A model generated the notes under the pieces. The model was not told the DNA's origin and made no database searches. It worked only from the letters and a program-made list of their open reading frames with translations. Below are positions 5,928 to 29,404 of a stretch of 29,404 nt of DNA, piece by piece. How positions within the stretch are numbered: position 1 is the first letter of the stretch; every line of letters starts with the position of its first letter. The position numbers were made by a program, and so were the translations under genes. The stretch comes from a virus (lineage: Duplodnaviria > Caudoviricetes), in IMG/VR virus record IMGVR_UViG_3300027206_000008, positions 1 to 29,404 of that record, one strand, 5' to 3'.

Positions 5928-8143
5928 TGTACGAACAAAGCTTATATCACGTGGTAGAAGACCACATAAAGCCTAAAGTTGTTAATAGACTTAATAGGCT
6001 TAAAAAATGGAAATACGGATACGATAAAGATCACGACGTTGTTGTGGTTAGCAAAACAGGGCAAATAGGTGAAATATATAGTATACAAAACCTATTGATA
6101 GCTCTGCCTTTAGCTGAAGACGTTTATAAGTGCTCTAAAAAAATAACAGAACAACGATGGAATGTTTTAGATTATCCAGCTGAATTAAAAAGAATTAATA
6201 CAGTATATGATTGGAATCAAAAACCTATAGCGTTTAAAGAAAAGCATTATGAATATATTAACAAAGAGTTCGTTAGGCGTGAAGAAGGTTATTGGTACTA
6301 TAACAAAGGTGTTCCTACTTATATTACTGGTTCTCACTACATGTACTTGCAGTGGACTAAAATTGATGTGGGGCACGCAGACTTTAGAGAATCAAACAGA
6401 TTATTTTATATATTCTGGGAGGCTTGCAAGGCAGATTCAAGATGCTACGGACTGTGCTACCTTAAGAATAGACGCTCAGGCTTCTCTTTCATGGCTTCAT
6501 CGGACACCGTTAACCAGGCAACAATATCAAGAGATGCAAGGTTTGGTATCCTTAGTAAATCAGGAGCTGATGCGAAAAAGATGTTTACCGATAAGGTGGT
6601 ACCCATCTCAATCAACTATCCTTTCTTTTTCAAACCAATACAGGACGGAATGGAACGTCCCAAAACGGAGCTATCGTATAAAGTCCCGTCGAAGAGACTC
6701 ACTCGTAACTCCATTAAGGAGACAACCGAGGATCTCCAGGCAGGTCTCGACACCACGATCGACTGGAAGAACACAGGGGACAACTCGTACGATGGAGAGA
6801 AACTCAAGCTCCTCGTCCACGATGAATCGGGTAAATGGGAAAGGCCGGATAACATCCTCAACAACTGGCGCGTCACGAAGACAACGTTAAGATTAGGTAG
6901 AAGAATCGTCGGTAAATGTATGATGGGTTCTACTTCAAACGCATTAGATAAAGGTGGAGAAAACTTTAAAAAGCTATACGAAGCTTCGGATGTCAACAAA
7001 AGAAACCGCAACGGTCAGACTAGCTCAGGACTATATAGTATGTTCGTACCTATGGAATGGAACTACGAAGGATACATTGATTCTTATGGACTACCTGTAT
7101 TCGACACTCCAAAAAAACCAATCAAAGGTGTTGATGGAGAAGACATCGACATCGGTGTAATATCGCATTGGGAAAACGAAGTTGATGGTTTAAAGGACGA
7201 TCAAGATGGTTTAAATGAATACTATCGTCAGTTTCCAAGAACAGAGAAACACGCTTTCAGAGATGAAGCTAAGGAATCTTTGTTTAATTTGACTAAAATA
7301 TACGAGCAAATAGACTATAATGAAGATCTTCGTAATACTAATGTAGTTACACAGGGTAATTTTCAATGGGAAGGTGGGATTAAAGATACTAGGGTAATGT
7401 TTGTACCTAATAAAAACGGCAGATTTCTAGTTAGTTGGGTTCCTCCAGTTGGACTACAGAATAGATACAATATAAAAAACAATATAAAATACCCTGGAAA
7501 TGAACACTGTGGAGCGTTTGGATGTGATAGTTATGATATATCTGGTACTGTTGACGGTAAAGGCTCTAAAGGATCTTTGCACGGATTAACTAAGTTTTCA
7601 ATGGAAGACGTACCGCCTAATTTGTTCTTTTTAGAATACATATCAAGACCACAGACTGCTGATATATTCTTTGAAGATGTTCTTATGGCTTTAATATTTT
7701 ATGGTATGCCTATATTGGCAGAGAATAACAAACCTAGACTCTTATATTACATGAAGAGAAGAGGTTACAGAGGTTATTCTATGAATAGACCTGACAAAGT
7801 TATGCATAAGTTATCAGTAACAGAAAGAGAAATAGGTGGAATACCTAATTCAAGTGAAGATATAAAGCAAGCTCACGCAGCTGCTATTGAAGATTATATA
7901 GAAAACCACGTTGGCCTTGGACAAGACGGATATGGAAATACATATTTTCAAAGAACATTAGAAGACTGGGCTAAGTTTAATATAAATAATAGAACAAAAC
8001 ACGATGCTTCTATTAGTTCGGGTTTAGCTATAATGGCATGTAATAAACATAGATATACACCTGTTGCAAAAAGAGTAATATCTCAAGTATCATTAGGTTT
8101 TAGAAAATATAACAATACAGGTGAAAATTCAAAAATAATATAA
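5927..8143 (+). CDS. terL: Terminase large subunit
   Basis: Walker A-like KNRRSGFS, Walker B LLVHDE, motif III GSTSN, RNase H-like nuclease FGCDSYD...HDASIS. Lies upstream of the portal. Confidence 0.93.
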   Translation: MYEQSLYHVVEDHIKPKVVNRLNRLKKWKYGYDKDHDVVVVSKTGQIGEIYSIQNLLIALPLAEDVYKCSKKITEQRWNVLDYPAELKRINTVYDWNQKPIAFKEKHYEYINKEFVRREEGYWYYNKGVPTYITGSHYMYLQWTKIDVGHADFRESNRLFYIFWEACKADSRCYGLCYLKNRRSGFSFMASSDTVNQATISRDARFGILSKSGADAKKMFTDKVVPISINYPFFFKPIQDGMERPKTELSYKVPSKRLTRNSIKETTEDLQAGLDTTIDWKNTGDNSYDGEKLKLLVHDESGKWERPDNILNNWRVTKTTLRLGRRIVGKCMMGSTSNALDKGGENFKKLYEASDVNKRNRNGQTSSGLYSMFVPMEWNYEGYIDSYGLPVFDTPKKPIKGVDGEDIDIGVISHWENEVDGLKDDQDGLNEYYRQFPRTEKHAFRDEAKESLFNLTKIYEQIDYNEDLRNTNVVTQGNFQWEGGIKDTRVMFVPNKNGRFLVSWVPPVGLQNRYNIKNNIKYPGNEHCGAFGCDSYDISGTVDGKGSKGSLHGLTKFSMEDVPPNLFFLEYISRPQTADIFFEDVLMALIFYGMPILAENNKPRLLYYMKRRGYRGYSMNRPDKVMHKLSVTEREIGGIPNSSEDIKQAHAAAIEDYIENHVGLGQDGYGNTYFQRTLEDWAKFNINNRTKHDASISSGLAIMACNKHRYTPVAKRVISQVSLGFRKYNNTGENSKII
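6249..6890 (+). CDS. Candidate overprinted lipoprotein nested in the +1 frame of terL (alternative start GTG 6279)
   Basis: 213 stop-free codons, signal-like KKVIGTITKVFLLILLVLTTC, Arg/Ser/Thr-rich tail, and a local GC rise. Confidence 0.55.
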   Translation: MNILTKSSLGVKKVIGTITKVFLLILLVLTTCTCSGLKLMWGTQTLENQTDYFIYSGRLARQIQDATDCATLRIDAQASLSWLHRTPLTRQQYQEMQGLVSLVNQELMRKRCLPIRWYPSQSTILSFSNQYRTEWNVPKRSYRIKSRRRDSLVTPLRRQPRISRQVSTPRSTGRTQGTTRTMERNSSSSSTMNRVNGKGRITSSTTGASRRQR

Positions 8144-20645: not shown

Positions 20646-22109
20646 ATGGGCGTAATAGAAGTAAAATATTTTAACAGTTTTATACTGAGAAAAACTCTTA
20701 GCTCTGCAGACGTTCCTGTCTGGAATGGCTCCAGAGGAGATAATACGTGGCCTCAACTACCTTCACCTCCTTATGTTCCTAATGATAAGAATTGGGCTAT
20801 AGAAGAATCTAGAATTAGAGGTGGCTATAATAATACATCTGTAGAGTTTGGCGTTAAAGCTTATTTAGTTGAAGACAATCCTAATGCTTCTTTTAGAGTT
20901 AATTCTATGATATACTCTGGAATATTTAACTCTAGAACGGGTATTAATGATACTAATGTTTTTTCTATAGGAGAAGATATTACTAAAAGTGTAAATCCAG
21001 CTAATGGTTCTATACAAAGATTATATGCTGAAAATACAAATTTATTAATTTTTCAAGAAGCTAAAGTTAGTCAAGCTCTTATAGATAAAGATGCTATATA
21101 TTCTGCTGAAGGCGGTGGAACTGTTACCTCTTCTAATCTTGTTATTGGAGCTGTGCGACCTGTAGGTGGAGATTTTGGAATAAGTAGAAATCCTGAAAGT
21201 TTTGCAATATACGGCTTTAGAAAGTATTTTACAGATAAAGATCGGAATGCTGTTTTAAGGCTGTCTAAAGATGGTTTAACTGAAATATCTAATTATGGTA
21301 TGTTTGATTACTTTAGAGACAACCTAAGTTCTTTAGATGGTCCTAGAAGTGTAGATATAGGTAAAGCTGTTGGTGGTTGGGACATGCACTCTAAGCAATA
21401 TGTTTTGTCATTACAACCTTGGAATAATACATACTCTACATTATCTTTTGATGATAGTGTTAATGGATTTCCAAGTTTCTTTAGTTACAAACCAGATCAA
21501 GTTTTTAGTTTAAAAAGCAATTACTACAGTACTAAAGATGGTATTTTATACATACACTATGGTTCTGACGCAAAAAGAGCTAATTTTTACGGACAACAAT
21601 ACAAGTCTAATATAACTTTTATATTTAATCCTAAGGTTAGTATGTCAAAAGTTTTTAAAACCGTAAACTATGAAGGAGGCAACGGATGGCAAGTAGATAG
21701 TTTTAAATCAGATATAACAGGTACTCATAGCGTTGGAACTCCTGAAGTAATAGCTTTAGAAGATCAAATAATTATTGATAATTTAGCATTTACAGACGGA
21801 ACTCAAGATGTCACAGCACTCATATACAGTTATAATCAAGGTTCTTATGATAATTACGGCAATCAGTACCCAGCTCAATTGATTCCTCCATTAAATCATG
21901 CCGGATTTACTAGAAAAGAAAACAAATACATGACAAATCTTATTAATAATAGTCCTGCGGCTGCTGGTGAAATCTTATGGGGACCATCTATGACAGGTAT
22001 AAAAGGTTATTTTGCAACAGTTACCATGTCTACAGATACTGTAACTGATGTTGGTGGAATGAAAGAATTATTTGCGGTATCTTCACAATATGTGGAGTCA
22101 TCATATTAA
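20646..22109 (+). CDS. Tail muzzle/nozzle C-terminal-like beta-propeller protein
   Basis: 487 aa. GSIQRL...FQEAKV, FGISRNPESF, YFTD...VLRLSKDGLTEISNYGM motifs. Confidence 0.65.
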   Translation: MGVIEVKYFNSFILRKTLSSADVPVWNGSRGDNTWPQLPSPPYVPNDKNWAIEESRIRGGYNNTSVEFGVKAYLVEDNPNASFRVNSMIYSGIFNSRTGINDTNVFSIGEDITKSVNPANGSIQRLYAENTNLLIFQEAKVSQALIDKDAIYSAEGGGTVTSSNLVIGAVRPVGGDFGISRNPESFAIYGFRKYFTDKDRNAVLRLSKDGLTEISNYGMFDYFRDNLSSLDGPRSVDIGKAVGGWDMHSKQYVLSLQPWNNTYSTLSFDDSVNGFPSFFSYKPDQVFSLKSNYYSTKDGILYIHYGSDAKRANFYGQQYKSNITFIFNPKVSMSKVFKTVNYEGGNGWQVDSFKSDITGTHSVGTPEVIALEDQIIIDNLAFTDGTQDVTALIYSYNQGSYDNYGNQYPAQLIPPLNHAGFTRKENKYMTNLINNSPAAAGEILWGPSMTGIKGYFATVTMSTDTVTDVGGMKELFAVSSQYVESSY

Positions 22110-22122
22110 ATTAAATCAAATG
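22105..22122 (+). promoter_or_regulatory. Repeated leader ATTAAATTAAATCAAATG (copy 2)
   Basis: Identical to 4606-4623. Supports ATG 22120 as the true start. Confidence 0.55.
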
Positions 22123-22533
22123 GAATTAAAAATACGAAAACTAGAGGAGTCTGATTGGGACACTTTAGTTAGTCTTTGGAATATGTGGCCTGATTGGCAG
22201 CATCATCCCCCTAAAGCACTACTTCCTGAAAACGGAACAGGTGGACTTATAGTAGAAAAGAACAATGTAGCTATAATAGCTGGTTTTATTTACACTACTA
22301 ACTCTAAAATAGGGTGGATGGAGTGGTTAGTTTCTGATCCAAACTACAGAGAGAGTGATAGAAAAGAAGCTACTAAAATGTTAATATCTGGATTAGAGTA
22401 CGTAGCTAAAATAAGCGGTTGTGAGGCTGTTATAAGCATAGGTAGAAATGAAAGTTTAATGGAAATACACAAGAGTTTGGACTATACAATAGACGAAAAA
22501 CCTTCTTATGAAATTTCAAAAAAAATAGTATAA
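22120..22533 (+). CDS. GNAT-fold acetyltransferase-like protein (137 aa)
   Basis: LKIRKLEESDW start, GLIVE..IIAGFIY, and WLVSDPNYR motif-A-like segment. Sits between the tail and ejection genes, as in many podoviruses. Confidence 0.65.
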   Translation: MELKIRKLEESDWDTLVSLWNMWPDWQHHPPKALLPENGTGGLIVEKNNVAIIAGFIYTTNSKIGWMEWLVSDPNYRESDRKEATKMLISGLEYVAKISGCEAVISIGRNESLMEIHKSLDYTIDEKPSYEISKKIV

Positions 22534-22534
22534 A

Positions 22535-23269
22535 ATGGCATTAGTAACAGCAGCAATAATTGGAGGCGTAGCGGCAGTAGCAGGAAGCACTATAGGTGCT
22601 ATTTCAGCGGGAAAGTCAGAGCGACGAGCGCGTTCAAACAAAAATAGACTTACAGGCGAACTAGAAGAGTTAGAAAAAAACCGTCAAGATATTATAAATC
22701 CTTATGAAGGTGTAACAGATTTGTCTAGTATGGTGTCTGACTTAAGTAGTATAGCTTCAAATCCATTTTCTAATCTTGCTGTATCAACAGCCGCGGCTGA
22801 AATGCAAATAGAAGAAGCTGATATAGCCTTAGCTAATACACTAGACACTCTTAGAGCTACTGGCGCTAGTGCTGGTGGAGCTACTGCTTTAGCTAGAATG
22901 GCATTAGAAAGTAAAAAAGGAGTATCAGCTAGTATAGAACAACAAGAAGCCACTAATCAACAAATGAGAGCTCGTGGTGAAGAAAGCTTACAAAACATAC
23001 AGCTAAGCGAAGCTAAAAGAGTTCAAAATACTAAAATGCGGGGAGCAGAAAGACTTGAGGATAAAAAAGTATCAGGTCAAATCTACGAGTTTGAAACTAA
23101 AGAAAAAAGAGAAAAAGAGCAACTTAATAGAAAACAATCTCAAATAACAGGAGCAGCAATGCAAGAAGGAGCAGCTGTTGAAGCTAAAGGAGCTGCTATA
23201 GCTGGTGGAGTTTCAGCTGTTGGTAATATGGCTGGTGCATACTACGGTGCAAAAGCAAAGGGAGCATAA
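22535..23269 (+). CDS. Putative ejection/internal virion (pilot-like) protein
   Basis: 244 aa with Gly/Ala hydrophobic N- and C-termini and a central coiled coil. Confidence 0.65.
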   Translation: MALVTAAIIGGVAAVAGSTIGAISAGKSERRARSNKNRLTGELEELEKNRQDIINPYEGVTDLSSMVSDLSSIASNPFSNLAVSTAAAEMQIEEADIALANTLDTLRATGASAGGATALARMALESKKGVSASIEQQEATNQQMRARGEESLQNIQLSEAKRVQNTKMRGAERLEDKKVSGQIYEFETKEKREKEQLNRKQSQITGAAMQEGAAVEAKGAAIAGGVSAVGNMAGAYYGAKAKGA

Positions 23270-23273
23270 TAAT

Positions 23274-24437
23274 ATGGAAGCAAAACAAAACACTTTTACA
23301 TCTGTAAATAAAGAAGCTAATAGCATTTGGGCTAACGCTACTAAAAACTTAGGCGCTGATACTACTAAAGCTATAAAGCTAGAAGGCACTTCTATGTCTG
23401 CTTCTCAAAAAGAAGCGGCTACTGTACAAAGAAATGTATCTGCTAGGCTTTTTGATAACCAAGAAGAAGCTTTAAAAAATATTAAAAAAGGAGGTATAAG
23501 AAATCCTTCGTTATCTAAATTAGGTAATGATTTAATATGGGGCATATATTACGCTGATACCGCTGTAACTCAAGCAAAAACAAAGCAAGAGCGTAACGAA
23601 GCTAGTGTAGCTGCTAGTAAATTAAATACATCTCTAACTGAGCTTTATCAAATTATAGACACTGGAAAAGAAACAGATGGTATATTCATGAAAGAATATT
23701 TTGGTCTTGAAGGTTCTAAAAACCCTGGGCAACCAGGCGGTATGGCTTTAGTAGGTAGAGATACTCCTTTATGGTCAAAAACTATGGCTATACGAAATGG
23801 ACTAGCTGGAGATGATGCTAATGAAGAGTATTACGTAGGCGATGATGCTGAAATTAGATTAAAATATACCGGAGCTATATTAGAAGGAGAAGTAGTTGAT
23901 AAGCCAGCTATAACTTGGTTAGCTTATGATCCAGGTATTGTTCTTGATTTAAAAGGTGAAAATATAAAAATGCTTCAAACGCCTAGCTCTTTAGATGTTA
24001 ATGGAGAGCAAGTTTCTATTATAGACAACAGCTTACAATATAACGATGCTTACTTGTTGTTAGACCAAAAGTATATGGAAGTGTCTGAAGACGGTAAAAC
24101 TCAAACAGAGTTTATACCTGCTAACATGGCTAAAATAGTTAATGACACAAAGTCAAAGTCTATGGCTAGAGCCGGCGCACTACTTAATGATTATCAAGAA
24201 GCTAATAGAGTTTGGAGAAACAACTTTAATAAAGAAGAAGATCTTAAATTTGAAGTTGCTCCTAATGGTAAAAATGTAGACGCAGGACAACAAGCTGAAT
24301 TTCAAGAGCTTATGTTTAGCAGTTTAAAACCATTATTACCTACGGTAGCAGTTGGTGCAACTACAGAAGTAGTTAAAGAAGAAGTACAACCTGAGATGGT
24401 TGAAGAAGTAGAATTAACAGCAGATCAATTTAACTAG
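23274..24437 (+). CDS. Putative internal virion protein (387 aa)
   Basis: Start reassigned to ATG 23274, after the upstream stop. Lies between the pilot-like gene and the giant gene. Confidence 0.7.
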   Translation: MEAKQNTFTSVNKEANSIWANATKNLGADTTKAIKLEGTSMSASQKEAATVQRNVSARLFDNQEEALKNIKKGGIRNPSLSKLGNDLIWGIYYADTAVTQAKTKQERNEASVAASKLNTSLTELYQIIDTGKETDGIFMKEYFGLEGSKNPGQPGGMALVGRDTPLWSKTMAIRNGLAGDDANEEYYVGDDAEIRLKYTGAILEGEVVDKPAITWLAYDPGIVLDLKGENIKMLQTPSSLDVNGEQVSIIDNSLQYNDAYLLLDQKYMEVSEDGKTQTEFIPANMAKIVNDTKSKSMARAGALLNDYQEANRVWRNNFNKEEDLKFEVAPNGKNVDAGQQAEFQELMFSSLKPLLPTVAVGATTEVVKEEVQPEMVEEVELTADQFN

Positions 24438-24438
24438 T

Positions 24439-27400
24439 ATGTATACATATAAAGATAGAAAGTTAACTAAAGAGCAGGTAGATAAACTCGCTGCTGAAAA
24501 AGGTGTTGAAGTTGATGTTTTTTTAACTAACAACCCAGATATACAAATACAGGAGGCAGTAGTAGAAACTACTGAACCAGAGGGAAAGACACCAACCACA
24601 GAGACGGACACGACTGTGGATGTAACCGAAGTGTCCGATACGGAATTGCCATCGGCAGATGGTTCTTTGGAGCCAGCAAGGACTAGTGTTAGAAAAAAAA
24701 CTAGAAAGTCGGATATTGAAAAAAATATAAATAAAAAATTAGACGAATCCATTGAAGCTTTTGAAGAAAATTTAATTGATTTAAACTTAAGTAATATTTC
24801 TGAAAAAAACTTAATATCTATTCAGAATACAGCCGTAGATTATTTGGTTTCTACATCTGAAGATCCAAATAACTATAGTTATACTGAAGAAGATGTCAAT
24901 GCTGCGACAAAAAACATATTAGATAAAGCTTCTGATATAAGAAACAAAAAGCTACAGCTGAAAGAGCAAGTAATAAACACTACTGTTGCCGAAAGTTTAA
25001 GTAACGCTTGGGAAAATCTTAAATTAGATAAAAAACGAATAGGAGAGTTTTGGAGTGGAGATTCAGAAGCATTAGACATAGCTACTGCGGCTATTTATAA
25101 CGGTGTTTTTGGTCAAGAAGTTATTGACGAATTTGTAAACAAAAACAAAGACAAAGAGTGGCTAACAAAAGGTCTTGGTACTGAAGAGCTATTAGAAAGC
25201 ATACCTAAATTTGAAGAACAGCAAACTAGAAAACTACAGACTTTACCTATAATAGAAAGTTTTAGACAAGGAGAGATAATAAAAGGCGGTGCAGCTGTGT
25301 TAAGTGGAATTATAAGTGGAATTGGCTCTATAGGTTACGGTGCATTTACAGGTGGAGCTGGTTTTGCTATGGATTATATTGCTGAAAATTATATTGAATT
25401 TAACGAAGGACTTGCTGAAAGAAAAAATAAAAGTGTAGAACAATTAATATTAGATGGAGAAGATAACGTTAGGGTACCAGTCGGTATAGCCGCCGTACAG
25501 TCTTTAGCTGAGAATATTGGTATAGGTAGGATAACTAAAGCTACTAAAGGAATACCAAAAAAACCTATACCTACTAAATTCTTTGACTCGCCATATGCTA
25601 TAAAAACAGCTGACATTTTAGGCACTGGAACTACTGAATTTACTACTGAAATAATTCAAGGAAGTTTAGGTAAATATAACGAAGCGTTAGGACAGACAGG
25701 TGAAATTGATAAAGCTTTTGAAGCTTTTACAGATCATATGACTTCTCAACAAGGTCTTGAAGAAGGTATACAGGGTTTTGCTACTGGAGCTGGAATAAAA
25801 GGAGGATCTTACTCTTTAAAGGCTGTAAACAATCTTAGATCACCAGACGAAAGCGAAGCTATACAGGCTGATATAGTTGAATTAGGTGACTTAAACAAGC
25901 AAGCAGTAAAAACCAAAAGCAAAACAGTAAAAGAAGGCATAGAGGCTAAAATAAAAGAAGTAAAAAGTAGATTAGACTCTAGAATAACAAAAGGAAACGC
26001 TTTGTTTTCAAAATTAACTCCAACTGAAATAGATGAAGTTAATAACATGGGAGACTTAAGTAGTTTGCAAATTAAGAGAGTTAAAGACTTAAGTTTAGAA
26101 CTAGACGAAGGCAAGATAAGTAGAGAAGAGTATTTAGTGGCTTTAGAAGGCTTTAAAAGCACTTTTATTGATGCTAAAAATAGGATAAAAGGTATATCTG
26201 TTGAAGTTGAAAAAAGAGAACAAGTTTCTGAAACTAAACTAGCTGAAGACATTGACGTTGGAGTTTCTGCTGATAATCTATTAAAATCTTCAATAAACGA
26301 AGAAAACACAGCTATAGTTTTAGATCCCGAATCTACACCCGCTCAAATAGATAAAGCGAAAACAACTTTAGTTGAAAATAATCAAGGTATAATAAATAAT
26401 GTTATAAACAAAAGTTTTAAGCGGGGTCTTGACACTGATTTAACTAGAGAAGAATTTGCGGCTGATATAGGCTTAGAGGTTCAAAAACTAATAAACACGT
26501 ACGGCAAAAACAAAAAGACTGGTAAAACAGCTCCTTTTGGTATCTATTTGAGAGATAATTTGCCTTTGAGAGTTCCAGCTATATTTGATAAGCAGCTTCA
26601 AACAGTTGATGGAGATATAGTTGGAAAAGTAGACGTAAGTAAGGCTGATCAAGAAACTACTGAAGACGCTGAAATTGAAACAACTGAAACGGAATTAGCA
26701 CCAGAAAGAGTATTTTTAAGCGAAGAAGTGGTTCTTCCTGACAATGTAAATAGTGAGATCAATAAAGTAGTTACTGATTTATTTTCAAAAGGTAAAATAC
26801 CTGAAATAGGAACAAAAGAGTTTACTAAATACGTAGAAGGTACTTACAAAAACGAATTAAAACCTATAATGGCTAAATTTATAGGTAAAAATACTGATGC
26901 TTCTTTAGAAATATTTTTAAGAGAAAACTTTAAAGAAATTTATGCCGGTATACCTCAAAGTATTATAAATAAGAGATTTCCTGCATTTAAAGAAGCTGTT
27001 TTAGATAAAGAAGGTAAACAAGTTAGAGAAAAAACGGCTCAAGGTAATGCTGTTTTTAAAAAGAAAGACATAACTCCAGCCGAATTTATTAAAAACTTCT
27101 TAGGTAGAGACGTAGGTAAATCAACTCAAGGAACAAGAAAAGATGCTTTAGCCGAGACTATGGCTATTATATATGCGAACGAAGCTAGTTTAGGTATTTT
27201 AGAGAATCCAGAAGTGCAAAAAGCTTTTAAAGATATACAAACTTTAAAACCTAAAGATGCTATACAATCTATAGATAATTTAATTAAGTATGTAGATTCT
27301 AATTATGGCAGAAAATCTGGAAAACTTTTTGCTGGGCCATTAGGCGTTGCTGCTGATTTACTTATAACCGCTTTAAAAGCTATAAAAGCAGCTATTAAGG

Positions 27401-29404
27401 CAGGTAAAAGCGTTTTAAACGCTGTAAAAGAAGGTTTATTGCCTATTGAAGAGGTAATTTCTAAAGAAATAGGAGAAAAAGATACAGCTAAATTAATGCC
27501 TAATCTAGCAAAAAAACTAGAAACAGCCTTAAATGCTGGTGATGATGCTGATGTGTCTAAGGTTATAGATGACTTTATGTCTGAGTACTCTAAATATCTT
27601 CCAAAAGAAAAACAAGAAGCTTTAATTCAATTAAAAAAAGATCCAACAAGTAAAGAAGCTAAAGAAATAATTGAAAATGTAGACGAACAAACTGCATTAA
27701 GCGAAGGTGTTTCTATTGAAGAATTTAACAAAAGAAATTTTCAAGCAGCTACAAACTGGAAAGACGCGGTTGTACCTATAGCTAAAATGTTTGGTGTTGA
27801 TATAGATTATATAAAACCGTCTTCGTATCTTTCTACTGAAGCTAATGAGAAAAGAACTGTTGATTTCTTCAAAGAAGTTGTAGGGTTTTTTCCAGAAATA
27901 TCAAAACTTCCTAAATTTCTTTTAAAAGCTTTAAAACCAACAGTTGCTACTGGAAAAAGTTTAAAAAGAGCAGATGGTACAAGGTTAAATGTAGATTGGT
28001 TTAATAACGCTATGAGTGGCATTGGTAAAGGTAAGACACAAAGCTGGATGAAGCAAGTGTATCAGCCTACTATATGGGGATACGGAAAACCAACTAAAAA
28101 AAGTCCTAAAGGATCTGGTTTCAAAGGTGCTATGGAAAGCAAGTTAGATCAATTGACTGATAACGGTAAGAACAATTTAACTTTAAAGCAAGAAAAAGAG
28201 TTTGTTGAGTTTGTTAGAGATTTTTTAACTCACCCTGATTTATTAAATTCTGTAAACGAAAACGGATTTAAAAATGGATACGAATTAACCGTAGAGGCAA
28301 ATAGAAAAGCTATTGAGTTTCTGTATAGTAATCTTGGTGAATTATATTTTAAAGCTAAAGACAAAAAAACAGCGTTAGAAAATATAAACTCTTTTTTACA
28401 AATGCAAACTAACCATGCTGATGGTATAATAAAAGGTTTAGTGCCTGTTATAAGCGTAACAACAAAGCCAGAAGCAAATCCAGACTTTAAGGATGCTAAC
28501 GTGGAAACCCACAACGAGCATATGGTTGAACTTTTTAATGCTAACCAAAGATTTTTAAGTATACTTTCTGAAGGTAAAAATGGTTTTGAAAATAAAATAA
28601 CCAATATGGTTAAAAACCTTAATCAGTCTTTGATATCTAAAAAAGCTCAAGGTTTAAAAGACTCTTCAGAATCTGGAGGAGCATCAGGTCAGATGTCTGA
28701 AAATCAATTTTTAAATACTTTTTTAACAAAAGATTTTGCAGATAATCAATTGATGATAATTGGTGAACAAGGTGAAAGTGTTACTGATTATTTAATTAAA
28801 AATTACAGTGTTGGAGTTCTTAAAGATGTTCTAAATGGTATACCAAATAAAGATGCTTCTGTTGACGCTGTTGATTTAAGTCAAGCTATAAATTATATAG
28901 ATGAATTTAAAAAATTAAAAAAGGACAACAACAACATACTTCCCGTTGATGAAAAACTAGAAGGTTATTACACTAATGATCAAGTTTTAAACACAGCTTC
29001 AGATATAGATTCGAATAGCACTAGCGAAGAAATAAAATTTACTAAAGAACTAAGTCTTGATAAAGATTTTAATGACATTATAGAAAACAAAACCGGTATA
29101 GCATCAGATAAAACTTATGCTAGAGTTAAAGCTGAGGTCGCTGGAGCTAATAAAGGTAAATTTAATTTCTTTATTCCACCATCAGCTGAAGACTTCGTAG
29201 GTTTATTATACTCTACTTTAGGCAAAGGATCTACTGGTGACGCTCAAATGGCTTGGTATAAAGCTCATTTGCTAAATCCGTTTGCAAGAGCAATGGAAAA
29301 CTTAGCTAATGACAGAGCTAACATGATGCAAGACTTTAGAGGACTTAAAAAAGCTTTGAAGATTGTGCCTAAAAATCTACGCAAAAAAATAAAAGATAGT
29401 AACT
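24439..29404 (+). CDS. Giant putative internal virion/ejection protein, >1655 aa, 3'-truncated (absent from the ORF track because it has no stop)
   Basis: ATG 24439 follows the upstream TAG. The frame is open in every portion I translated, including the window end (MYTYKDRKLT...FFIPPSAEDFVGLLY...). A Gly/Ala hydrophobic segment lies near 25280-25380. Confidence 0.88.
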   Translation, partial: MYTYKDRKLTKEQVDKLAAEKGVEVDVFLTNNPDIQIQEAVVETTEPEGKTPTTETDTTVDVTEVSDTELPSADGSLEPARTSVRKKTRKSDIEKNINKKLDESIEAFEENLIDLNLSNISEKNLISIQNTAVDYLVSTSEDPNNYSYTEEDVNAATKNILDKASDIRNKKLQLKEQVINTTVAESLSNAWENLKLDKKRIGEFWSGDSEALDIATAAIYNGVFGQEVIDEFVNKNKDKEWLTKGLGTEELLESIPKFEEQQTRKLQTLPIIESFRQGEIIKGGAAVLSGIISGIGSIGYGAFTGGAGFAMDYIAENYIEFNEGLAERKNKSVEQLILDGEDNVRVPVGIAAVQSLAENIGIGRITKATKGIPKKPIPTKFFDSPYAIKTADILGTGTTEFTTEIIQGSLGKYNEALGQTGEIDKAFEAFTDHMTSQQGLEEGIQGFATGAGIKGGSYSLKAVNNLRSPDESEAIQADIVELGDLNKQAVKTKSKTVKEGIEAKIKEVKSRLDSRITKGNALFSKLTPTEIDEVNNMGDLSSLQIKRVKDLSLELDEGKISREEYLVALEGFKSTFIDAKNRIKGISVEVEKREQVSETKLAEDIDVGVSADNLLKSSINEENTAIVLDPESTPAQIDKAKTTLVENNQGIINNVINKSFKRGLDTDLTREEFAADIGLEVQKLINTYGKNKKTGKTAPFGIYLRDNLPLRVPAIFDKQLQTVDGDIVGKVDVSKADQETTEDAEIETTETELAPERVFLSEEVVLPDNVNSEINKVVTDLFSKGKIPEIGTKEFTKYVEGTYKNELKPIMAKFIGKNTDASLEIFLRENFKEIYAGIPQSIINKRFPAFKEAVLDKEGKQVREKTAQGNAVFKKKDITPAEFIKNFLGRDVGKSTQGTRKDALAETMAIIYANEASLGILENPEVQKAFKDIQTLKPKDAIQSIDNLIKYVDSNYGRKSGKLFAGPLGVAADLLITALKAIKAAIKAGKSVLNAVKEGLLPIEEVISKEIGEKDTAKLMPNLAKKLETALNAGDDADVSKVIDDFMSEYSKYLPKEKQEALIQLKKDPTSKEAKEIIENVDEQTALSEGVSIEEFNKRNFQAATNWKDAVVPIAKMFGVDIDYIKPSSYLSTEANEKRTVDFFKEVVGFFPEISKLPKFLLKALKPTVATGKSLKRADGTRLNVDWFNNAMSGIGKGKTQSWMKQVYQPTIWGYGKPTKKSPKGSGFKGAMESKLDQLTDNGKNNLTLKQEKEFVEFVRDFLTHPDLLNSVNENGFKNGYELTVEANRKAIEFLYSNLGELYFKAKDKKTALENINSFLQMQTNHADGIIKGLVPVISVTTKPEANPDFKDANVETHNEHMVELFNANQRFLSILSEGKNGFENKITNMVKNLNQSLISKKAQGLKDSSESGGASGQMSENQFLNTFLTKDFADNQLMIIGEQGESVTDYLIKNYSVGVLKDVLNGIPNKDASVDAVDLSQAINYIDEFKKLKKDNNNILPVDEKLEGYYTNDQVLNTASDIDSNSTSEEIKFTKELSLDKDFNDIIENKTGIASDKTYARVKAEVAGANKGKFNFFIPPSAEDFVGLLYSTLGKGSTGDAQMAWYKAHLLNPFARAMENLANDRANMMQDFRGLKKALKIVPKNLRKKIKDSN
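24582..24637 (+). promoter_or_regulatory. Putative programmed -1 ribosomal frameshift signal (slippery heptamer plus H-type pseudoknot)
   Basis: In-frame G GGA AAG at 24582-24588 and a 7-nt spacer. S1: CCACAG 24596-24601 / CTGTGG 24614-24619. S2: CGGACAC 24605-24611 / GTGTCCG 24631-24637. Confidence 0.75.

Follow-up and report, generated by a model that had tools for sequence, protein, structure and literature searches.

In the E. coli gene copA, an efficient early -1 frameshift yields a functional short product of 70 aa, compared with 834 aa for the full-length protein (excerpts of PMC5009743, PMC6771820 and PMC9548414). Truncation by recoding is also seen in dnaX, where the E. coli ribosome slips by -1, and where the polymerase of Thermus thermophilus slips on a run of nine bases (PMC5009743, in part). 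In dnaX, the shift lies two thirds into the gene, the stop follows one codon later, and no conserved trans-frame tail is made. Its stimulators are a stem-loop and an upstream Shine-Dalgarno (SD) sequence. In copA, the stimulator is a pseudoknot and the slippery site A AAA AAG, and CopA(Z) is essentially the released N-terminal domain.

Phages also make two products with a common N-terminus by a -1 shift, as in gpG and gpGT of lambda. The slippery site of lambda itself is of the G GGA AAG type. According to the consulted sections of PMC5009743, G_GGA_AAG is highly shift-prone in E. coli, HCTV-5 shifts at a heptamer of this type, and runs of nine A or T induce polymerase slippage. The same sections describe frameshifts in virion genes, podoviruses included (T3/T7 gene 10 and the Ig-domain extensions of capsid and tail proteins), and in csoS2, where a -1 shift gives a short and a long protein (CsoS2A/B) inside an icosahedral shell. 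The T3/T7 gene 10 and Ig-domain cases add to the C-terminal end of a major structural protein. In csoS2, a gene of a cellular organelle, the shift occurs at about residue 570 of 869 and adds only three residues from the -1 frame. In crAss001, a cargo block of small, medium and giant genes (gp45, gp46 and gp47-50) follows the muzzle gene (PMC10172136, in part).

Here, we describe a cassette at the start of a giant gene in a 29.4-kb virus record, from an uncultured marine phage, that is about 46% complete; this whole stretch is called the window. The GGGAAAG heptamer and the predicted pseudoknot of the cassette probably constitute a programmed -1 frameshift signal, which would provide, beside the giant protein, an 82-residue protein with a predicted hairpin tail; this protein may serve as a small cargo partner. 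We consider it highly probable, from the sequence comparisons, that the shift itself takes place. Like copA, the cassette is an early truncating shift in a long gene. However, copA encodes a cellular copper pump, whereas about 30 selected residues would be added here from the -1 frame. The preliminary description compared the locus with dnaX; it does truncate in the same way, but copA/CopA(Z) appears to be the closer analogue in position. The differences from lambda are larger. Lambda gpG/gpGT belongs to long-tailed phages, and its shift extends a small gene at its end; the present one, in a podophage, truncates at the start of a giant gene (82 aa compared with more than 1655 aa), and there is no homology between the two. 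A lambda G/GT tail assembly chaperone frameshift, where a small chaperone gene lies between the major tail and tape measure genes, was rejected as an identity on the podophage gene order, the lack of family matches and the lack of an extension.

In the literature covered, which left subscription journals aside, no description of the giant-gene cassette was found, and the word "frameshift" is absent from the available parts of PMC10172136 and PMC5512222. The cassette would be programmed recoding of a known sort, and its use, to cut short a giant cargo gene early on and provide a selected new tail, was not found in print in that literature.

The cassette in the window and its genome context

The features discussed are listed below in the coordinates of the window.

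22072-22533: 153-aa gene, located after the muzzle-like gene and before the cargo block
22535-24437, plus strand: upstream genes of 244 aa and of about 388-410 aa, which take the small and medium cargo positions; listed as context
24439-29403, plus strand: giant gene, 0 frame, with ATG at 24439, incomplete at the window end (1655 aa)
24439-24588, plus strand: N-terminal part of 50 aa, common to both predicted products, without a family match
24582-24588, plus strand: slippery heptamer G GGA AAG, codons 49-50, in phase
24589-24595, plus strand: spacer ACACCAA, 7 nt
24596-24637, plus strand: predicted H-type pseudoknot, from knot score and covariation
24596-24601 with 24614-24619, plus strand: stem S1, 6 bp, Watson-Crick
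24605-24611 with 24631-24637, plus strand: stem S2, 7 bp, Watson-Crick
24588-24686, plus strand: -1 frame of 32 codons and TAG at 24684-24686, without its own start codon
24615-24623, plus strand: CxC of the -1 frame, overlapping the S1 3' strand and loop 3
24639-24671, plus strand: aromatic/Gly motif of 11 codons in the -1 frame, conserved by profile and codon analysis, a predicted beta-hairpin by model

The phased heptamer, the 7-nt spacer, the two interleaved stems, the loops (3, 2 and 11 nt) and the 32-codon -1 frame all lie at the positions first described. The predicted short product is 50 + 32 = 82 aa. The region 24582-24686 was noted as a GC-rich patch in an AT-rich genome, and its GC content is indeed 53%, compared with 34% across the window. 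In 1000 dinucleotide shuffles of the 70 nt 3' of the heptamer, none equalled the knot score of the window, a heuristic, simple home-made stacking score for H-type knots, and the proposed pseudoknot thus exceeds chance. Nested-only folding recovered S1 without significance (z -1.18), which is expected because the program cannot form pseudoknots. A search of Rfam with the cassette region gave nothing near the gathering score. The window carries an in-phase X XXY YYZ heptamer and, by prediction and covariation, a stimulatory structure 7 nt downstream, within the 5-9 nt of programmed -1 ribosomal frameshifts.

Pfam- and PHROG-type searches of the window recognise the terminase, portal, capsid and muzzle-like genes, the last through a match to Pfam crAss_MUZ_C. 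The giant gene is the third of a small, medium and giant block after the muzzle-like and 153-aa genes, the same position as the crAss001 cargo block. The portal matches 87 phage records, all below 60% identity (40-49% among the 60 matches listed), and nearly all come from podophages of flavobacteria (elemo, Cellulophaga, Panino). For the capsid protein, there are matches to Callevirus and Pachyviridae as well. The matched podophage genomes have the same gene order, which ends in small, medium and giant genes. On this sequence evidence, the phage is a podophage of flavobacteria and has Pachyviridae, Callevirus and Elemovirus as relatives. In a prophage and host search of GTDB, the 33 matches were phage-like contigs in MAGs or chance, and the isolate-genome matches examined were chance. 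The gene syntenic to the 153-aa gene is annotated as an acetyltransferase subunit in MW202828. In addition, an open frame of 213 codons with an ATG (6249-6890, plus strand) is nested in another frame of the terminase gene, over its GC-richer part, and has no family match.

The giant protein is 2259 aa long in a near-identical contig (L212). Neither Pfam, PHROG nor PDB gave a significant match to it by sequence, nor did PDB by fold, and family searches with the giants of relatives gave scattered matches only. Pfam recognised no named polyvalent domain in the giant proteins. However, a model of the C-terminal 799 aa of the L212 giant (mean pLDDT 65) matches 34 large viral proteins at E <=0.001, several of which are named polyvalent or MuF. 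These fold neighbours recall the large polyvalent phage proteins (PMC5512222, in part). In the syntenic phi18:3, the giant gp123 is annotated as structural by MS/MS. From gene position and modelled fold neighbours, it is a reasonable inference that the giant is likely a virion or injected cargo protein. The identity as an "ejection protein", the term used previously, is likewise inferred from these two lines. A BLAST search of the window giant against the giants of cultured phages gave no match, so the link to these phages rests on synteny and on portal and capsid homology. Identity as a virion RNA polymerase was considered and is unsupported; the giant has no sequence or fold match in PDB, and the DxDGD/DFDID motif of the crAss cargo block has no counterpart in the giants of six cultured relatives. 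In three relatives (L225, L248, L254), the C-terminal half of the giant carries a weak polynucleotide-kinase-like insert (phrog_415), which is in line with a polyvalent architecture.

Conservation of the signal and of the -1 frame

Relatives were collected in three ways. Set A was found by the upstream 244-aa gene, and 80 of 81 loci were kept, of which 62 cover the giant start, 10 lack the middle gene and 8 lack the start. Set B comprises 119 loci found by the motif pattern, from which one chance match (L104) was dropped. Set C was found by giant residues 1256-1655 and comprises 58 of 59 loci after one open-ended locus was dropped. Sets A and C were chosen without reference to the cassette, and the sets share some contigs. 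A motif profile was built from set B and applied with a cut-off above 15 bits. The window, the positives of set A and set B together give 136 distinct cassettes, of which, by a fixed rule, 93 have a heptamer, 38 an A-run and 5 neither.

Phased GGGAAAG is found at 27 of 9,888 codons of gene starts and at 0 of 160,126 in gene bodies, which confirms the proposed conservation of phase, and it encodes 27 of the 67 Gly-Lys pairs at starts and none of 1300 elsewhere. The 93 heptamers include 41 GGGAAAG, 15 AGTAAAG, 8 GGATTTT, 7 GGAAAAG and 6 GGGAAAT, among others. A strong knot lies 3' of 50 of the 93, whereas none follows any of the 217 control heptamers taken from other coding sequence or any of the 38 A-runs; the other 43 heptamer loci are below the strong-knot cut-off. 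The spacer is 6-7 nt in 39 of the 50 strong knots. A second phased GGGAAAG in the window (22609-22615, codons 26-27 of the 244-aa gene) meets a -1 stop after 12 codons, has no strong knot and recurs in 2 of 78 related loci. It is probably due to chance.

The stem sequences differ widely among the knots of relatives, whereas the pairing is kept. In a sequence-only alignment of 36 like-spaced cassettes, 69% of cells pair, compared with 25-41% when slid. In the 15 rows with the gap pattern of the window, the values are 93% and 29-42%. As had been anticipated for S1 and S2, both stems are conserved, and both-sided changes occur in 5 of 7 S2 pairs; S1 hardly covaries in this close group (1 of 6 pairs). 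The covariation score of the 15-row alignment was reached by 0 of 500 shuffles, a control that relatedness can inflate. An upstream SD-like stimulator, as in dnaX, was rejected, with SD-like sequences at 11 of 113 loci and 41 of 560 in the background.

The -1 frame is open for 29-50 codons in relatives and carries the motif YG-x-x-x-G-R/K-W/Y-F-F-G. Of the giant starts, 39 of 62 in set A and 33 of 58 in set C were positive for the profile when read in the -1 frame. In set A, the profile was positive at 0 of 62 starts in frame 0, at 1 of 62 in +1 (L057, frame misassigned) and in 0 of 300 downstream control windows; in set C, frames 0 and +1 gave none. Among 59 distinct motifs of sets A and C, the three Gly residues are invariant, and they are encoded by all four GGN codons, while frame 0 opposite the invariant Gly varies among E, V, D, A and G. 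Entropy is highest at the third positions of the -1 frame (1.16 vs 0.61 and 0.48). Where codons differ by a single base, the change is synonymous in the -1 frame in 63% of cases, compared with 18% in frame 0. The motifs were chosen by the profile, whose training set, the pattern-selected set B, has some contigs in common with the test sets, and this inflates the conservation of the -1 frame. Selection in frame 0 only finds a weaker trend, with GGT in 26 of 34 compared with a background of 57%. In terms of codon usage, these comparisons show that the -1 frame is under selection at the protein level, and the conservation expected of the -1 peptide (YGxxxGRWFFG) was thereby found. The locus thus combines a conserved signal with a selected -1 frame, as in programmed -1 ribosomal frameshifts, and the combination is absent from about 28 of 103 distinct giant starts.

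Could the conserved stems belong to an RNA or DNA element of different function, such as mRNA processing, pausing or attenuation, with the -1 peptide as a by-product? The covariation, the GC-rich island and an acidic, low-complexity 0 frame over it would agree with this. However, the heptamer is strictly phased and spaced 6-7 nt from the knot, variation gathers at the -1 third positions, no hairpin is conserved within the motif, and the motif persists at 38 loci that have no knot. We regard such a structure as very improbable. Chance or an assembly artefact is hardly credible, given that independent contigs carry the cassette, that it is spread over a tree of 58 cargo-1 proteins and that a 99%-identical contig (L001) has it too; the motif, knot and heptamer counts above already refute it. 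A frameshift signal remains our preferred reading of the conserved stems and heptamer.

Other candidates at the locus were rejected as well. Independent initiation of the -1 frame was rejected, since none of 115 relatives has an ATG upstream of the motif and only one has a start codon of any kind. For a hairpin within the motif, the outer pairs form in just 21-34 of the 59 motifs. An antisense ORF of 112 aa (24414-24752, minus strand) is a low-complexity mirror of frame 0, and it is not specific, because one antisense frame is open in 77 of 115 relatives and another in 76. A tblastn search of the -1 peptide against cultured phages gave a single chance match.

Relatives with an A-run

In 38 of the 136 cassettes, a run of A9-A10 replaces the heptamer and knot and is followed by the same tail. 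The run is A10 in 33 and A9 in 5 of these metagenomic loci. Such runs are rare elsewhere; in 1.72 Mb of related loci, there were one A10 run and 16 A9 runs. BLAST matches 23 of the 38 loci to giant genes of the sets or of GenBank, several of them knot-class genes, so one gene family uses both signals. A run of at least nine A or T that is rare elsewhere and conserved in place is what transcriptional slippage requires; this applies to the A-run relatives, and the run is absent from the window. The near-constant length in three phases suggests, on sequence grounds, polymerase slippage. Nevertheless, the phase of 28 of the 38 runs (xxA AAA AAA AAA) would let ribosomes slip too, and slippage in transcription rather than by the ribosome is only somewhat the better expectation. 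As in dnaX, ribosome and polymerase would then substitute for each other in a truncating recoding, which would be a second case of this kind.

All cultured relatives examined carry an A9-A10 run at the site. In eight GenBank segments, the cassette site is the sole sense-strand run of at least nine A, and a basic, aromatic peptide, more degenerate than that of the window, follows in a non-zero frame. The records of phi18:3, phi46:3, phi19:3, phi13:2 and Panino have A9, and here the N-terminal part and the giant lie in different frames. The corresponding features in GenBank segments are as follows.

L205:15310-15621, L207:16119-16427, L208:8056-8364 and L209:6119-6382: small gene that is the N-terminal part of the giant, out of frame at A9
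L204:18700-18900, minus strand: N-terminal part of an A9-run giant, same class

One extra A would join the small gene to the giant in these A9 records. This suggests that the split into a small and a giant gene in five GenBank records conceals one gene. All 38 metagenomic A-run cassettes are in frame with the giant, and an under-called homopolymer is therefore a live explanation, at least as likely as a true split, for the cultured Pachyviridae. A search of viral contigs for the A9 split returned four records only, with the lengths of the isolates themselves. In the Panino record, the N-terminal part of the giant is not annotated at all. The phages phi13:2 and phi18:3 have unrelated N-terminal parts and identical sequence after the run. 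A MAG contig (L287) carries A11 five nt before the motif, and its N-terminal part, giant and short tail lie in three different frames; the run length may also vary there at the DNA level, as in phase variation.

The cultured phi38:1, Calle_1, elemo and phi18:3 carry the A-run form, which makes testing possible now. Raw proteomics of phi38:1 infection and virions are public under PXD066074 (PMC13288928, in part).

The predicted short product, its possible roles and the probable losses of the cassette

Across 110 loci, the predicted short products are 58-135 aa long (median 80). The N-terminal part is very variable, with 25 BLAST clusters among 103 starts, and the best ESM Atlas score for the N-terminal 50 aa of the window was an uninformative 0.76. 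The short-peptide model is of poor overall quality, with a mean pLDDT of 60 (77 over residues 21-30), and ends in a predicted two-strand hairpin; a fold search with the short-product model gave no match. The 82-aa product was originally described as having a His/Cys-rich, aromatic C-terminus. The aromatic/Gly motif and CxC are conserved, but the His residues are not. CxC is found in the tail at 89 of 113 knot-class loci, compared with 31 expected by permutation, and at 0 of 38 A-run loci; it may be driven by the RNA, since it overlaps the stems. The tail, with its many Lys and Arg residues, has a median net charge of +5, which is partly what the -1 frame of Glu and Lys codons gives.

The proposed mechanism is as follows. 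The knot would make the ribosome pause while tRNA-Gly and tRNA-Lys occupy GGA AAG, and a fraction would re-pair on GGG AAA by a tandem -1 slip. The slipped ribosomes would read 32 codons and stop, leaving the 82-aa protein beside the giant. In relatives with A9-A11, RNA polymerase would slip and insert an additional A, which would lead to the same short product. Sharing the N-terminal loading module of the giant, the short form could be loaded alongside it at a set ratio, and during packaging or ejection, the basic, aromatic hairpin could grip a membrane or some other protein of the virion. This last part, a small cargo partner loaded with the giant whose hairpin holds a membrane or virion protein, is put forward tentatively, at somewhat below even expectation. 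The cargo-partner role is still favoured over a released chaperone or a pure throttle.

A shift that mainly throttles the giant, with the short product as a by-product or tagged for degradation or sequestration, seems unlikely. The position is truncating, the giant exceeds 2000 aa and capsid space limits its copies, and the cassette is lost in about a quarter of relatives. For crAss001, about six copies of each large cargo protein are estimated (PMC10172136, in part). However, a throttle needs just a nearby stop, as in dnaX, and here the -1 frame stays open for 29-50 codons. The three invariant Gly residues are also kept, with synonymous change, even under the other type of shift signal. The preliminary description allowed for either control of giant copy number or a small partner; the conserved tail argues against copy-number control as the sole purpose, and the partner is favoured.

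An assembly chaperone or adaptor that is not part of the virion, comparable to lambda gpG/gpGT, would link the giant to portal, capsid or other cargo and then be freed. It differs from the small cargo partner only in the final location of the product. The heptamer type is that of the tail-chaperone shifts (PMC5009743, in part), and a common N-terminus with a separate C-terminal binding element follows the G/GT logic. Nevertheless, there is no homology to tail chaperones and the 0-frame product is the giant, a likely structural protein and not a chaperone, and we judge this alternative improbable. Returning to the cargo partner, a wider reading would make it an unannotated small virion protein throughout the family, made only by recoding. 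Its aromatic beta-hairpin would anchor in or open the host envelope during ejection, lineages would have swapped knot and A-run, and some giants would need the slip to gain their N-terminus (A9 in phi18:3, phi13:2, phi19:3, phi46:3 and Panino, A11 in L287). This extrapolation from sequence is doubtful. If true, it would concern abundant marine and freshwater flavobacterial podophages.

The cassette points to a protein missed by gene callers in a widespread phage group. Moreover, few bacterial frameshift pseudoknots are known, and the cassettes would add dozens of natural ones that differ in their heptamers. Stand-alone candidates for the short product comprise four proteins and 30 cluster representatives (three in common) of 58-131 aa. 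Most are the N-terminal module fused in frame to the tail at heterogeneous junctions, and 13 of 14 looked up are single-member clusters. These in-frame fusions may be sequencing indels and carry no weight in the present reading.

The motif is missing from 40 of the 103 distinct giant starts, and 12 of these have, by eye, a heptamer with a variant tail. Variant -1 tails were seen at the giant starts of L012, L015, L016, L019, L033, L035, L037, L232, L255 and L263; after the heptamer and a Cys-rich stretch, they are rich in Trp, Phe and Ile around a turn of the W-G/K/N-W type. In a quick tree of 58 cargo-1 proteins, 38 rows have the motif, 8 a variant and 12 none. The cassette is found to either side of the tree midpoint, and the 12 rows that lack it are dispersed over the tree (8 changes). 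This distribution suggests that the cassette is probably old and repeatedly lost, and repeated loss means that it is not universally essential. In a close relative (L010, from position 6864 onward), the phased GGGAAAG is kept, the -1 stop comes after six codons and the motif is lost. It is sister to a full cassette on the cargo-1 tree and is a decayed cassette.
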